DNA of 62,801 nucleotides, filler included, from Rhabdomonas costata (taxonomy: Eukaryota), in assembly GCA_019059605.1 (NCBI GenBank). It is 31 parts of 31 records of this genome, joined end to end, with 100 filler letters (N's around TTAATTAATTAA, not from the genome) between each part and the next. Parts side by side here need not be neighbours in the genome. Positions count along the whole stretch, not along the records: positions 22,297 to 24,224 come from JAHMHO010007283.1; 30 more parts are not named here. One strand, given 5' to 3'. The notes beneath the pieces were generated by a model. The model ran no database searches and was not told the origin of the DNA. It saw only the letters and a program-made list of their open reading frames with translations. The translations under genes and the position numbers were made by a program. Shown here piece after piece: positions 5,532 to 58,975 of this stretch. Numbering within the stretch: the stretch's first letter is position 1; the number at the start of each line of letters is the position of its first letter.

Positions 5532-6092
5532 CTGAGGGACGAAGACGGAGTACAGATAAGAAATGCAATTCCCTGCCCCACCAACCTCAGTAAGTCCAAA
5601 CAGTGCTTTTCGGAAACGTTTCCTACCTCTGACCGTTGAAGTGAAACGGGAAATACAATAAAGTAGACCCCCCTTACTTTGACGCACTTTTCCAGCTCAG
5701 AAGATAACCAAGGTCGTCAGGAGGGGGGGATGCTTTTCGGCCATCAAGCGCACACACCAAGACCTCGCGGTGCTGCATTGTTGCGCACACCATCAAGACC
5801 GATGTTCATAAGTTCGCAGGCAACCCTGTGGGATGGAGCATCAACTTAATTGAAGAGATCCAACAGGAGCAGAATATAATCGCTCCGCTGCATAGTTTGC
5901 GTTCAATTCAGATCTGCCCAACATTCACTGCCACATACCTCCGGTGTAATTACCAGAGAGCCAAAAGGGGGGAGGGAGGGAGGGAGANNNNNNNNNNNNN
6001 NNNNNNNNNNNNNNNNNNNNNNNNNNNNNNNTTAATTAATTAANNNNNNNNNNNNNNNNNNNNNNNNNNNNNNNNNNNNNNNNNNNNTTGGT

Positions 6093-6198
6093 GGGGATAA
6101 TTGTGCGTGCCCTGACCTGCAATATTCCGCTATTCCTCGAAAATAAAAGAACCAGTCCTGAGGAAAGATTGCAGGTCAGGGCACGCACAATTATCCCC
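6093..6198. repeat. Contig-terminal perfect inverted repeat (31-bp arms, 44-nt loop)
   Basis: GGGGATAATTGTGCGTGCCCTGACCTGCAAT (6093-6123) is the exact reverse complement of 6168-6198. Confidence 0.95.
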
Positions 6199-6256
6199 TC
6201 CAACCCTTTTTCGGCCGGAATTCGAAAACCAAAGAGCCAAGATAACATGCAATAGC

Positions 6257-21577: not shown

Positions 21578-22355
21578 CTTTTGAAAAAACCGAATAAATA
21601 CAAAAAAGTGGTTCGGTATTTCAATACTGAAGTTTAATAATACAGGATTTTCTTTTCATTTGTTCAGCAGCGCGCAACAACAATGCACAGTTGCAAACCG
21701 CAAAAAAAAAGTGATACAGGAAGCAAACCATAAATTACAGAGGCATAAGACAAAGGGAAAACATGGCCAAATAAGGCAGAAAAGCAAAATTGGGTTCCGA
21801 AGCGAAAAAGGGCCCCCAGGCTACTTCGAATGCTTTGCAACAGTGCAAACCTCAAGCTGCATGTTTTAATCACCTCTTTCCAAGCAACGTGGTTTGTGGA
21901 AAAAGGCGTACACGAGTTCCTGGAGCATTAACCAATGAATTGTGCTAGCAAACGATCCCACCCATTCATTCGCAAGAAGCAAATCACATTCAACCCGTTC
22001 AATGTACTACACGGTTGGGCTACACGGCCCATCAAAGGTGAGTTGCGTCCAATCCAAGAAAGAAAAAGAAAAGGCCTTGCTGTCAGCCGCAAATTCTGCA
22101 GGGCAAGTTCTTTTGGGAGTTGGAGCTGCGCTGGCTGCATTTACTGCAACCCCCCCTCCCTCCCTCCCGTTGGCAGCCCGGGGAAACAGAAGGGTGNNNN
22201 NNNNNNNNNNNNNNNNNNNNNNNNNNNNNNNNNNNNNNNNTTAATTAATTAANNNNNNNNNNNNNNNNNNNNNNNNNNNNNNNNNNNNNNNNNNNNCGGC
22301 GCTGCACAGAGAGGGAAGGAGGGGGGAGGGGGACGAGTGTTGCTCTGTCTCGCAG

Positions 22356-23247
22356 CGGGGTGCACAAGCCCAAGCGCTCGAAGTTTGAGCGGCTGCTGAA
22401 CCATGAGTTTGTGCTGCTCGGGGTGGTGATGTTCCTGATATGCGCGGGGATGGCCGTGGGGACGGGGCTGTGGTGCACCGAGACCTCCTTCCAAATCGCC
22501 GTGGCGGGGCACGGGAGCCCCGCGTGGCAGGGCTTTCTGGCATTTTGGGTGGGCCTGCTTATGTTCCAGGTGCTCATCCCGATCGCCATGTACGTCATGC
22601 TGGAGGTGTGCTCCTCTCGTCGGTTGGATTGGGTGGGATGTTTCTGGTTGGTGATCACTGTTCTTCCTTGGTTATGGGTAGGATTTGGGTTATTTTGGAT
22701 AGTATTTGCAATAGCCCCCCTTTGCCTGACGGCCGCCCCCTTAAGTATTGTCCCTGTCGCCTCAAAAAGGCACAACTGGAAAGCGCGCTCTTCGAGTAAT
22801 TTCGGTCGTGGAAATTCTGGTGAAGTCCTAGTTTGTGCCAGAGATGCATTTGTTTGCAATATGTCACACCCCCATATACCAGCCAGATGTATATGGGGTA
22901 CATCAACCAGGAATATCAACCAGACGCGTAGCAGTTTCAAAACAGTTTTCTCACTCCCTGTGACGTTGGTCCTAGACGCTAACCCCGATGTTTGTATTTG
23001 TGGGATCCTGCGGATGGTTAAGTTGTCAGCTTTTCAGATGAAGTGCATCAGCAAGACCTCTTTGGGTATGAAGAGGTGTTCTCCCGCATGGCTGTGGTTG
23101 TGCAGGCCGTGAAGCTGGCTCTGAGCCGCCTAATCGAGGTGGACGTCGAGCTGTATAGCGAGGAGAGCGACATGAGGACCTCGGTACACGCCATGAACAT
23201 ACCTGAGAACCTGGGGCAGGTCGAGCACATCTTCTCTGACAAGACAG
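22356..23247 (+). CDS. P4-type ATPase (phospholipid flippase), partial; exons 22356-22605 and 23106-23247
   Basis: KRSKFERLLN, two transmembrane helices ending LIPIAMYVMLE, then ...MNIPENLGQVEHIFSDKTG, the P4-ATPase signature (IPISLYV; EELGQVEYIFSDKTGTLT). Confidence 0.95.
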
Positions 23248-23552
23248 GTTTCGCCCCGCCCCGCGAGATACCCTCATCCACACTAATGCAGACAAAGTCG
23301 AGCGCGGGGACATCCCCTTATCTGCCCATCAAGCATCTCTCACTCGGATAAGGATGTGTCCAGTGAAGAAGAAGGCAGCATCCCGCGGGCTTCAGCATTT
23401 CCTTTGTTTTCCTCTCAAGACTCCAAGACGCTGCGGGAGTGAGGGCCGGAAAGCGCCCTTCCCCCTTGTCGTGGTTGGGACTCGGAGTAGTATTGTACGC
23501 CTCGGTTCGTTTGTTGTGCCGGGACACACATGTGCAGGGAAAGGGGCGATGT

Positions 23553-23923
23553 GGCTTCTGGACCGTGAGACGTTATACCATGTAGTGTACTCAACTCAGT
23601 GGCGAGGGAATGCACTGGGAGAAGGATTCCGGGAAGGAAGTGGCATGCCTTCGTACTCCTCCGGAATGCCCGAGGCGATCTCCAGGACGGTCCTCAGGGA
23701 AAGCACGTGGAGCTTCCGCAGTGTCATCACATTGTCCGTAAGCGTGCCTGCGCAACCGCAACCCACAGAATTAGTGACCATGTGCACACCAAAGCAACCA
23801 TAAAACCGCACACGGCCTGGTGTTCTGGGTTGGGTACATCCACCGTCGCCTGAGCACCCAATTACCAGCCTCGGCACTGAGTTGAGTACACTACATGGTA
23901 TAACGTCTCACGGTCCAGAAGCC
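23553..23923. repeat. Pair of perfect 49-bp inverted repeats (23553-23601 and 23875-23923) bracketing the inverted exon
   Basis: GGCTTCTGGACCGTGAGACGTTATACCATGTAGTGTACTCAACTCAGTG and its exact reverse complement; partial similarity continues on both sides. Confidence 0.97.
23649..23747 (-). CDS. Next exon of the same P4-ATPase, in inverted orientation
   Basis: The minus strand reads TTGCGCAG|GC ACG CTT ACG GAC AAT GTG ATG..., completing the phase-1 DKT-G to give DKTGTLTDNVMTLRK. The likely donor is GAAG|GCATGC (less certain). Confidence 0.9.
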
Positions 23924-24888
23924 CCACGCCCTTCCCCCTCCCACACACCTACCCACCTGACTCAAACAAACGCAACAGTTCGTCTAGCTGTTCGTCTAGC
24001 TGACTTCAAATGGAGAAATGGAGATAAGAGCGATAAAGATGAAGAAGAGGTAGAAGCACCCGATGAAATTTAAAATTTAGGCAAAGCAAAGACAAAAATC
24101 ACAGCATTCAAATGTGCAGAAAGGTATACTGACTCTTTAATCTGAGGACGAGAGAACGCTGCTCACCACAAGTACCGTTGTCTACTCCATAAACGGAAGT
24201 GAAGTGCCTTTTTTCACCCAAAACNNNNNNNNNNNNNNNNNNNNNNNNNNNNNNNNNNNNNNNNNNNNTTAATTAATTAANNNNNNNNNNNNNNNNNNNN
24301 NNNNNNNNNNNNNNNNNNNNNNNNTGTGTGGTGTGGTTGAGCATCCGCTGAGTGAAGCTGGGCATTGCTCTTATTTTTTATCTCTTGGCTTTCGTTTCAT
24401 TGGTTTACTAGAGACACAATTTGCCATCCATACTTGCAGTTTCTTACAGTCTCCCTTGAATTCAGCAGAATGAGTGAATGCCTTTCACTGATGTTGGTTT
24501 GTCGGTCATCGTAACCGTTAAAATTGACTCGAAATGTTCTGAAATCTGATGGCTGGGGTTGAACGTCGACACCTGCTACACCGAGAGAGCAGTTGATTTA
24601 AGCAGCCTTTCATATCCGACCCGGTCCAAGATTGCGACCCTGTTGCAAGATAGATCGTTGAGACTGAAACATTTAATCACCGGACCAAACTGGGATTCCC
24701 AAATCCGTTAATTTCTCTCTCTCTTTTTTTCATGAAAGGTCGCTTCTACTAACTGAATAAAAGTTCCCACTTTGATGACACGGGCAATATCCCCGTCGTG
24801 GAGCAAGCGTTGCTCGAGCACATTAGCGATGACTGCGCTGCTTTGGTGGGGTAAACGGTGCAGTTGAGTGGGGGTTCTGCTTTCCCAG

Positions 24889-38273: not shown

Positions 38274-38570
38274 GCATATGCTCCCCTCCATTCCATCAGA
38301 TCCCCATCCGATTCAAGTCAAACCACCTCACACATCCAAGGCAATCAAAGGCACGCATTGAGGTGGATTGACAGATTGCACGGTTTGCCTGTGTGGCGGC
38401 ATCAAAACGCGGTTCCTCGGGGGGTCTGTATCCACCAACCAGGAACCGCGTTTTGATGCCCACACCCACANNNNNNNNNNNNNNNNNNNNNNNNNNNNNN
38501 NNNNNNNNNNNNNNTTAATTAATTAANNNNNNNNNNNNNNNNNNNNNNNNNNNNNNNNNNNNNNNNNNNN

Positions 38571-47639: not shown

Positions 47640-50444
47640 CTGCAGAAAAAGGAGCACCGGGATGCGTCCAAAGACAACCAACAAAGTTCTAAAATCTGTG
47701 AAATGTGAGTCGTTTCACTTTGGGTGAGCGTCCTGGAGGAGAAGAGAAGAGCTGAATGCGTTGTTGGTGGTTCATTTCCTTTTCCTTCGCGCGAACAGAG
47801 GGAGAGAAACGCGGAGAATGAGAAAGTCATGAAGCAGGATGGTGAAGAAATTCCACAAAAAAATTCGTGCGTTTCTTTAGTGCGTTTCTTTTTTTTTTTG
47901 CGGAAAGGAACGCTGTCTTCTTAAAAAGAACGGAATTACCAAAAAAAACAGCCTTGCAATAAAGTCTCACCCATAACAATCGTTTGAAGAAAGCGGCTGT
48001 CAGACTGTGAGGATCGTCATCTCTGTGCTGCGCAGAGCGAGAAAAATCAGAAAATGAAGGACGGGAGTGGCAACGTGCAGGCCAATCACACAGTTAGGGT
48101 GGTTTCATCCCAACTGTTCACCTCTGGCACGTTTCTAGACACACATTATCCGGAACTCTTGACAAAAATAAACGACTCGATTGAAGCACAAAGTGAGGGA
48201 GAGAATGTTTGCTGCACTTCGAGCACACCGCTTCAGAGCCTTAAGAACCTTGGCCATGGGAAGGGCAAAGAAAAACCCGCCGCGGCTCTGAAGCCCGCGA
48301 AAGGGTAGTGAGCCAACAAGCCTCACCCACGATCGATTGAGAGGAAGAGGAAGAGATGAATCAACTACAAGCAGAACAAAAGGTATACACACCCACACCC
48401 GTACCGCTGAGAAAGAAAGAATTTGCAGAATGCCAAGAATCTGCGGAGGTTGTCTGATATCCCGATAGCTGAAAAATGCCTCCCAGTTTCCACCAGTATC
48501 ACGCAAAAACACTTTCAAGTGGGATAGGGGGGCACCTCCCGAAAATAGTCAAGCAAAAGACTACTGCCTCCTACAGGAACAGCAAAAGGGACAATCCCAT
48601 TCTTGACTGGNNNNNNNNNNNNNNNNNNNNNNNNNNNNNNNNNNNNNNNNNNNNTTAATTAATTAANNNNNNNNNNNNNNNNNNNNNNNNNNNNNNNNNN
48701 NNNNNNNNNNTACATCATCACAATCTTGATCATGGTTGCCATCGGCGGGCTCCACTTTGCATAATTGGTAACTTTTTGGCCTCATGTCAGCACTAATTCA
48801 GATTAACAAGAAGTACCAAGGCTGGAACAGATATTTCCGTGTTGGTATCAGACGCAATTACGTAGCAGGAAGTCACGACGGAGGAGTGGCCATGCGGAGT
48901 ATTTAACCACTCGTCTTACACAGGGGTGGATTTCGGCCTCAGATGGAGGGGTAAGATGTCATGATAACCTGGGGTAAATTGGGAGGGAATGTGAGGGTGG
49001 AGTAGATACAAACGTCCTGGGAATGTATCTGGATTCCTACGAAGCGAATGTCACCAGATCATCCCATTCTATCTGGGGGTATTTTTCTGATCCAACCTTT
49101 GGGTGTCTGTGTGAATTTTCGCGTAGGTGGTTGTGTTTTTGGGTTTATGTCATTTAGTCATTTCGGATTCATGTTGTTGGATGTAGGGTTTGGTATTTGT
49201 GGTTACGGTGTCTGTGTTCCGGGATATACGTCGATGTGGTGGTTGCAGTGTGGCTACGGTTCAATGCGGGAATGCTGCCATGAGTGGTGCATTGTGTTCC
49301 GGTTTTACGATGTTAGGATGGGTGTCAAGATGTAGTGGGTTCCTCAGTAGCCTTTTGTAGTTTTGGGAGTGTGTTCTACGCTAACGTTGCTCTGTTTGCG
49401 TTATATGGCCTTCATGATTCCACTTGCGTCTGGTGAGCTCTTGGCATTTGGGGTCTTGGTTTGTGTTCCGGCTTCGCGTTCCTGGTTCTGGGTTGCTGAC
49501 TTCAGGTAGCTGTGCCTGTTGTCGTGGAGTTATGGCTAGGTTTTGGCATTAGGTGGGTGGTCTTCGGGGTCAGCCCTCGCGTTTCGTGGTTGGGATTGCG
49601 GTTTGAGTTTCGTACCATTTTGATTCTTTGATAATTATTTCTGGACATGATGTTGGTTAGGGTAATGGAGAATGTGTGGAGTTGCGTGGCTGGGTTTGGT
49701 GGACGGTGTTGGGTTTGGGTCAGTAGTGTGTGTGAGGTAGTGCGTGAGTGTGGGTGTGGGTTCTGCAGTGGGGTTGGAGTCGGTGTCCATGTTGGTGCTG
49801 TTGGTGTTGTGGGTGACTGTTGGCTGTGTTGTTGTGGCCATGTAGTGGATGTGGTCTTGGCGTAATTGATGATATGTGGGTGTGGTTGGTGTGGAGTTGT
49901 ATGGTTGGTGTGGAGTGGGATGATCTGCGCTGCCCTGATGGTGGTGATGGTAATTGTGTGATTTCTGGCGTGGTTTTGTGTGTGATGGTGTGTGGATTTC
50001 TGGCCTCTGTTTTTGAATTTGTTTCTGTTTATTTAGAGGTCACTCGTTATGTCAGGTGATGAGACCATGTAAAAATTACTGAGAGTGCCATATCAAGCTG
50101 AGATTCTGTAGTTAAACCACCTCTCTTTGGACACGTGAACCAATCATGTGAGAGCAACATGTGTGAGCCGTGATTACTACTGTGTTGAAACAGGATCTAC
50201 CACACGAATAGTACGGCAGGCTAGGCATATCATTTGCTCCCACGTGATGGCGTTGGCAACGATGGAGAATGCAAGTAGAAGGCCACTAAAAAACAGTTGA
50301 TGAATTGCTGTTCACTTGACATGTTGGTCAAGTGTACGTGTGGCAATGATGCTGAGTGTCATATGGTGAGCAGTTGAAGTAAACACGTTGACACACGTCA
50401 CATGGCCATATGCAACCAGAGACACTAAACCACAGTGTACGTGC

Positions 50445-50631
50445 GTGTGGATTACCTTATTTTTTGTTGATGGTAGTGGTGAATGCAGTGCAATGCTGCT
50501 ACTCTACTCCTACTCTGCAGTGGTCGTGGAAGTGCTGGTGCGAGTATTAGTGCCAATGCAGAGTAGGAGTAGAGTAGCAGCATTGCACTGCATTCACCAC
50601 TACCATCAACAAAAAATAAGGTAATCCACAC
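50445..50631. repeat. Contig-terminal perfect inverted repeat (75-bp arms, 37-nt loop)
   Basis: 50445-50519 is the exact reverse complement of 50557-50631. Confidence 0.95.
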
Positions 50632-50773
50632 ACCCCCNNNNNNNNNNNNNNNNNNNNNNNNNNNNNNNNNNNNNNNNNNNNTTAATTAATTAANNNNNNN
50701 NNNNNNNNNNNNNNNNNNNNNNNNNNNNNNNNNNNNNCTCTCCTCTGCCCCCGTAACCGCCACCCCGCTGCAG

Positions 50774-58747: not shown

Positions 58748-58848
58748 NNNNNNNNNNNNNNNNNNNNNNNNNNNNNNNNNNNNNNNNNNNNTTAATTAAT
58801 TAANNNNNNNNNNNNNNNNNNNNNNNNNNNNNNNNNNNNNNNNNNNNG

Positions 58849-58975
58849 TGGGGTAAACCTCATGTGCTTCTTGCCGCACTCCTCGGAGACTTCACCCGGC
58901 ACGGCAGCAGCGCAGTGAGAGGCCTCAAAGCTCAACTCCGAGGAGTGCGGCAAGAAGCACATGAGGTTTACCCCA
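58849..58975. repeat. Contig-terminal perfect inverted repeat (40-bp arms, 47-nt loop)
   Basis: TGGGGTAAACCTCATGTGCTTCTTGCCGCACTCCTCGGAG (58849-58888) is the exact reverse complement of 58936-58975. Confidence 0.95.

Follow-up and report, generated by a model that had tools for sequence, protein, structure and literature searches.

The gene fragment described here raises the question of whether an exon of Rhabdomonas costata that lies antisense to its neighbours belongs to the genome of this euglenid or to the procedure by which its DNA was amplified and assembled. Two exons of a P4-ATPase (E1 and E2) are read from the plus strand of one contig, and the exon that continues them (E3) is read from the minus strand between two exact 49-bp inverted repeats (arms A and B). 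We put at about 0.58 the probability that E3 owes its antisense position, at a hairpin-forming site of an ordinary flippase gene, to an artefact of amplification or assembly. Its orientation, and possibly the second of the two 49-bp repeat copies as well, most likely originated outside the cell.

The window, by which we mean the whole stretch of 62,801 nucleotides that was analysed, is composed of 31 separate, unrelated contigs of 1,918-1,978 bp each, set end to end with linkers of the form N44-TTAATTAATTAA-N44 between them. These linkers produce 60 runs of N and also surface as 'repeats' in a repeat search; features that apparently cross a linker anywhere in the window (1-62801) are meaningless. 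The earlier note had viewed the stretch as a single window and overlooked the 31 joined contigs; the flippase feature is confined to one unplaced contig (Table 1). The first contig (1-1929) has a GC content of 27.9%, against 47-57% in the other 30, and may be of organellar, contaminant or repeat origin.

Table 1. Features of the flippase contig, and terminal hairpins found elsewhere in the window (positions count along the whole window; a slash marks an exon boundary).
Feature	Position	Strand	Remarks
Contig with flippase feature	22297-24224		1,928 bp, stand-alone, between two linkers; sole context of the feature
E1	22356-22605	+	P4-ATPase TM3-TM4 region, ends ...LIPIAMYVMLE; acceptor ctcgcag, donor GAG/gtgtgc
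Intron 1	22606-23105	+	GT...AG, 500 nt
E2	23106-23247	+	ends ...NIPENLGQVEHIFSDKT-G (first base of Gly codon); donor ACAG/gtttcg
Intron after E2, 5' part	23248-23552	+	last 16 nt similar to the reverse complement of 23924-23937
Arm A	23553-23601	+	exact 49-bp core; imperfect extension 23537-23607
Spacer	23602-23874		273 bp; carries E3 antisense to E1 and E2
E3	23649-23747	-	(G)TLTDNVMTLRKLHV...; acceptor ggttgcgcag/GC at 23747; putative 3' end 23649
Arm B	23875-23923	-	reverse complement of arm A without mismatch; extends imperfectly over 23869-23937
Right flank	23924-24224		without recognisable exon; terminal 10 nt read inward (GTTTTGGGTG) G/T-only, amplification-primer-like
Terminal hairpins	6088-6203, 38390-38470, 50445-50637, 58848-58975		arms 28-79 nt, loops 23-47 nt

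Judged by its sequence, the gene is a P4-type (lipid flippase) P-type ATPase, of which the contig holds three exons with about 165 residues. E2 translates as AVKLALSRLIEVDVELYSEESDMRTSVHAMNIPENLGQVEHIFSDKT-G and closes on a GT donor. Searched as a 76-aa stretch against PDB, it returned 19 matches, all 19 of them P4-ATPases, the best being yeast Drs2p (PDB 6psy; E 5.7e-6), to whose residues 510-563 it aligns up to the phosphorylated Asp motif. E1 matched 77 proteins at E<=1e-3 in a library of 1.8 billion proteins, with 41% identity at best. Similarity to P4-ATPases thus covers the TM3-TM4 region and the entry to the P domain. In a word-index search against longer proteins, E2 gave one match (P0079, 60% identity), which bears PF16212, PF16209 and PF00122; no match was obtained for the E1 region, nor for the frame that runs across the left arm into the spacer and would represent protein fragments of an alternative junction. 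The family signature IFSDKTGTLTxNxM is present as well: E2 ends in HIFSDKT-G and E3 opens with (G)TLTDNVM. It differs from that of other family members in being split across strands, the two halves being read from opposite strands.

The homology of E3 extends over its first 14-16 codons (about 23747-23700). Its 3' end at 23649, a putative GC donor, was proposed in the earlier note, whose arithmetic of a frame-neutral exon of 99 nt is correct if that donor is used; GC-AG is counted among the conventional intron types of Rhabdomonas costata in the genome paper (PMC8219788). E3 alone yielded no match in PDB and is too short for database detection. Its motif T[LI]TxNxM occurs once in the six frames of the 62.8-kb stretch, at E3 itself, and in none of 2000 shuffles of the contig. 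When eight full-length homologues were aligned, E1 and E2 fell on consecutive residues in all eight, and E3 followed directly after E2, with one residue to spare for the split Gly codon, in seven; in P0004, for example, the three exons correspond to residues 323-400, 401-447 and 449-464. The eighth homologue, P0006, had its best local alignment to E3 elsewhere. In tblastn searches with 10 homologues, E1 and E2 were recovered by all 10 and E3, owing to its shortness, by one on the minus strand (P0002, residues 431-449 on 23748-23692, E 0.42); these searches of the contig and the window revealed no exon besides E1-E3. The catalytic exon therefore lies antisense between exact inverted repeats at every coordinate originally given for it, in a gene whose homologues order the exons consecutively, and the earlier note is right that cis-splicing of the locus as assembled cannot yield a functional enzyme. 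The polarity of the gene implies that the sense orientation is the ancestral state.

All three exons are intact. The acceptors of E2 (tgtggttgtgcag/GC, 23086-23105) and E3 (tgcggttgcgcag/GC, 23748-23767, minus strand) are nearly one word, and could represent a local splice-site consensus of the organism. Intact exons and similar acceptors are expected of a working gene rather than a decayed one, which counts for an artefact, and the flippase gene itself is probably ordinary and intact. A transcript-derived protein of Rhabdomonas costata joining E2 to E3 was not found in the word-index searches or the exhaustive search with E1.

Eighty metagenome loci encoding relatives, the closest of them about 50-60% identical at the protein level, were used for comparison. 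DKTGT[LI]TxN is contiguous in 74 of the 80, and a contiguous variant (M/R) in four more brings the number to 78. In one locus (L058, 1952-2095) an intron follows right after DKTG and GTLTCNIM is found about 80 nt downstream on the same strand; in another (L059) no matching motif was seen past DKTG. The motif lies solely on the opposite strand in none of the 80, and the exon arrangement of the flippase contig is exceptional. The intron of L058 is at the same position as the intron after E2, or adjacent to it.

The 49-bp repeat occurs twice in the window, as the two arms, against 0.00 copies expected, and has no match among the metagenome contigs, so that the further copies for which the earlier note suggested a search were not encountered in either set. 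Imperfect similarity lengthens the arms to about 71 bp, the outer side having 13 of 16 matches plus two indels and the inner side 5 of 6; the mismatched similarity noticed on both sides of the core is thus real. Past about 16 nt on the outer and 6 nt on the inner side, there is none above that of shuffled sequences, the observed values being equalled by 163 of 200 and 182 of 200 shuffles, respectively. E3 is separated from arm A by 47 bp and from arm B by 127 bp. The predicted RNA fold has an energy of -225.6 kcal/mol, against -158.1 +/- 6.4 (z -10.6), and the predicted hairpin of single-stranded DNA one of -122.3 kcal/mol, against -63.2 +/- 4.2 for shuffled sequences (z -14.1). A search of the contig against Rfam at E<=1 gave no match. 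The proposed stem of about 50 bp, looping the exon out of the pre-mRNA, is therefore strong as a prediction, and would exist in the organism if both copies of the repeat are genomic. In that case, and with E3 in sense, the layout would resemble that of exon-circularising introns, in which repeats of about 30-40 nt reportedly suffice for back-splicing (Liang and Wilusz 2014, PMC4201285): the complementary arms here are 49 nt long, and the short exon would be 127 nt away from one and 47 nt away from the other. The likeness applies only to the hypothetical sense arrangement.

Several simpler origins of the repeat were considered and rejected. A fold-back of the whole contig does not fit flanks that are unrelated beyond about 16 nt, and mirrored gene copies do not fit the tblastn results, in which neither E1 nor E2 recurs on the minus strand. 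By inspection, neither boundary of the repeat shows the target-site duplication of a transposon, whose 'cargo' would here be a host exon. A nonconventional euglenid intron was dismissed on the ground that the stem encloses an exon and does not join two. Nor is the outer flank primer-derived or the repeat an internal adaptor: the outer flanks of both arms contain A and C with no pure G/T run, the contig continues for 301 bp, and the universal amplification primer has no match at the repeat.

The contig ends, 62 in all (for example 1, 4059, 12165, 24325, 34414, 50637 and 62801), carry a record of how the DNA was prepared. When read inward, 45 of the 62 ends have at least 10 G or T among their first 12 bases, against 3.08 expected from internal 12-mers; 21 of the 62 are pure G/T over all 12, and the mirror control with A and C gave 1 of 62. 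The right end of the flippase contig bears this footprint and its left end does not. The footprint matches the G/T tail of a published tagging primer, TGTGTTGGGTGTGTTTGGKKKKKKKKKKNN, which we take to belong to the same kit family as the Sigma kit used for Rhabdomonas costata, and at the contig ends 4059 and 60875 the sequence opens with 10 bases identical to the beginning of its universal part. In this assembly, the end of a contig reflects a primer site and not biology. The primer has a K10NN tail and belongs to a heat-fragmentation procedure (PMC10781638), and GenomePlex is characterised as displacement DOP-PCR, that is, isothermal synthesis followed by PCR (PMC5611438). According to the genome paper, DNA from 69 microdissected and about 2,000 sorted cells was amplified with Sigma WGA4, sequenced as MiSeq 250 and HiSeq 100 reads and assembled with SPAdes 3.7.0; the assembly has an N50 of 1,194, a GC content of 51.6% and an estimated coverage of 10-20x, and its fragmentation is blamed by the authors on uneven amplification (PMC8219788). 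Two other 1928-bp contigs of the assembly are labelled cov_2.18 and cov_1.36 (PMC8219788, supplementary file 6). The properties of the stretch agree with what the paper describes.

Five inverted repeats of at least 24 nt were found in the window, and in four of them the distance to the nearest contig end is 0-6 nt. At 6 of 62 ends, an exact inverted arm of 12 nt or more begins within 20 nt, compared with 1 of 248 internal control sites, and arms of at least 16 nt at 4 of 62 and 0 of 248, respectively. By inspection, the mismatches in the outer arms at 6088, 38470 and 50637 mostly have G or T in place of A or C, which is what bases derived from the primer should show, and the sole difference in the repeat at 58848 is T/G. 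No coding sequence was recognised near the hairpins at 6088, 50637 and 58848. The four terminal hairpins are probably primer-tagged fold-back chimeras of amplification, in which short tagged molecules would have turned back on themselves and outcompeted the natural continuation. On this reading, amplification chimeras are present on 4 of the 31 contigs, and rare molecules can dominate a locus. These four repeats combine an outer arm at a contig end with a G/T footprint; the flippase repeat does not.

Footprints, terminal chimeras, amplification from few cells and low coverage together render the assembled orientation of E3 doubtful. From the observed anatomy of the locus, the observed footprints and the observed frequency of inverted chimeras we infer that the flippase inversion is one such chimera. 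In the correct gene the third visible exon would follow E2 in the same direction. The DNA of very few cells would have been fragmented, tagged by a degenerate G/T primer, replicated with a displacing polymerase and amplified by PCR, and the inversion could then have arisen by two routes. If both arms are genomic, strands stalled in one arm may, in later cycles, prime anew in the opposite arm of a strand with like polarity, which inverts the spacer one junction at a time, leaving a scrambled mixture from which the assembler would choose arbitrarily. If one arm is genomic, a nascent strand may jump to the opposite strand and back again, guided by the 13/16 and 5/6 flank similarities, and produce the inversion and the second arm together; a mismatched 3' base would have to be kept at both jumps, which an exonuclease-free enzyme would presumably tolerate. 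A second genomic copy of the repeat is plausible, as is its creation by the same template-switch event as the flip; that both arms are genomic and E3 is in sense falls a little short of an even chance. With few founder molecules per locus and a k-mer coverage of about 2x, a chimeric molecule, or a mixture resolved arbitrarily, could have become the only contig.

A close parallel is the mechanism described for inverted chimeras of multiple displacement amplification: the 3' end of a displaced strand primes again on a neighbouring strand with the same polarity, and inverted sequence results (PMC1855051). The four primer-tagged fold-backs at contig ends are of this type. The flippase piece differs in being internal, in returning to the original strand, in its 273-bp spacer and in the absence of a footprint, and the kit used here is a displacement-plus-PCR hybrid, not multiple displacement amplification. 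Further points stand against the artefact. The clear chimeras of the window have spacers of 23-47 bp, and 301 bp of sequence lie beyond the flippase repeat. Both in-vitro routes demand two non-natural junctions, or a 50:50 mixture and an arbitrary choice, whereas a real inversion demands none. Since no break interrupts the contig in either arm, the reads seem to have held a single arrangement. An internal, footprint-free repeat that is shorter than the reads and lies on an unbroken contig keeps our confidence from rising above the value given at the outset.

The preference for an artefact over a switch, voiced in the earlier note, is shared here; its assumption of a pure mis-orientation by the assembler is less likely than scrambling or chimera formation during amplification. 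The repeat of 49 bp is spanned by reads of 100 and 250 nt and is shorter than the larger k-mers normally used by SPAdes, so that simple blindness of the assembler is unlikely, and the window contains direct traces of such amplification events.

A genuine recent inversion in the sequenced clone, giving a null allele or a very young pseudogene of one flippase paralogue, is a serious alternative to the artefact and should be entertained, if tentatively. The exon with the TLT of the DKTGTLT phosphorylation motif would have been flipped in one of two ways. Either the arms were already in place and recombined, or allowed a template switch between them during replication, or else one two-hop switch copied about 322 nt from the opposite strand and created the second arm. 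No extra artefactual junction is then needed, the contig is continuous through both arms, and the primer footprint that marks the obvious chimeras is absent from the repeat. The exact core with its abrupt, short and imperfect flanks would also suit a recent template switch or inverted duplication. Template switching between arms, as treated by Abraham and Hazkani-Covo 2021 (PMC8604942) and Loytynoja and Goldman 2017 (PMC5453318), can make a short, imperfect repeat both longer and perfect, with which the exact flippase core between imperfect flanks is comparable, and its two hops invert the spacer; in yeast coding genes it is reported both to invert spacers and to lengthen arms (PMC8604942). 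In the natural cases from coding DNA given there, spacers measure 2-5 bp and arms 10-16 bp, whereas the flippase arms are 49 bp long and the spacer, at 273 bp, holds a whole exon; the spacer inversions documented in yeast are likewise of 2-5 bp (PMC8604942). Weak support comes from the intron tables of the genome paper, in which NODE_7909 and NODE_7929 alone are of 1928 bp and neither is annotated as an ATPase, the term 'ATPase' occurring there in Table S8 only. No 1,928-bp contig listed there with a transcript-supported intron could be the flippase contig, which is compatible with low or no expression. Perfect arms, intact exons and intact splice sites would require the event to be very recent. 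The inversion would moreover have been met in amplified DNA of about 2x coverage in which 4 of 31 contigs bear inverted chimeras, and none of the 80 related loci shows the arrangement. If it is real, the locus would offer a clean natural example of a large template-switch or repeat-mediated inversion, of the size of an exon, that inactivates a conserved pump gene; the mutation would be of a known type and very young.

Very improbable, by comparison, is a programmed and reversible inversion in which a catalytic exon bounded by repeats turns the flippase on and off, the arms being genomic and the 273-bp segment being flipped within the living cell when they recombine or when a template switch takes place between them. 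Inverted repeats do bound the segment, and flipping it restores an in-frame DKTGTLT. In these respects the locus resembles the bacterial intragenic invertons described in 10.1101/2023.03.11.532203, where inverted repeats lie within genes and the orientation of the segment changes the product. Those systems are enzyme-mediated, reversible and seen in both orientations, whereas the flippase, a spliced eukaryotic gene, is seen in one orientation and with no recombinase recognised on its contig. Pfam searches of three reading frames of the contig, which is short (1,928 bp), gave no match above threshold, to a recombinase or to any other family. Copies of the repeat beyond the two arms are absent from the window and from the metagenome contigs, and no relative has the layout. 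Nothing thus supports the regulated switch offered as one possibility in the earlier note. Should the inversion be real and reversible as well, eukaryotes would have a gene switch of a new kind and, with it, their first counterpart of the bacterial intragenic invertons; in the 'on' state, the arms would loop the exon out of the pre-mRNA.

Euglenids possess abundant trans-splicing machinery, and exons of the antisense strand are joined by trans-splicing in Drosophila mod(mdg4). A reading in which E3 is correctly oriented in the assembly and trans-splicing of E2 to the opposite-strand E3 completes the mRNA is nevertheless the least credible of all: E3 retains a good acceptor resembling those of E1 and E2, and spliced-leader trans-splicing of Rhabdomonas costata transcripts is described (PMC8219788), but an artefact or a recent event would account for an intact acceptor just as well, and since the E2 donor transcript and the sequence upstream of E3 both carry the same-sense copy, the arms would not bring the two together by pairing. 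For antisense trans-splicing, as for a regulated switch, the support is confined to the anatomy of the locus. The presence of HIFSDKTGTLTDNVMTLRK in the transcriptome of Rhabdomonas costata would indicate that a sense copy or trans-splicing exists.

Whichever reading holds for the flippase, the Rhabdomonas costata assembly consists of amplified molecules in which footprints and fold-back chimeras are still visible. Strand switches, palindromes, inverted repeats and 'mirrored gene copies' in this organism call for confirmation at the level of reads before they are interpreted biologically. An internal match of 18 nt to the universal primer, with 3 mismatches, is found at 47668-47685 on the minus strand, where 0.09 such matches are expected per window; it may be due to chance, or may be an internal adaptor remnant that marks a chimeric join.
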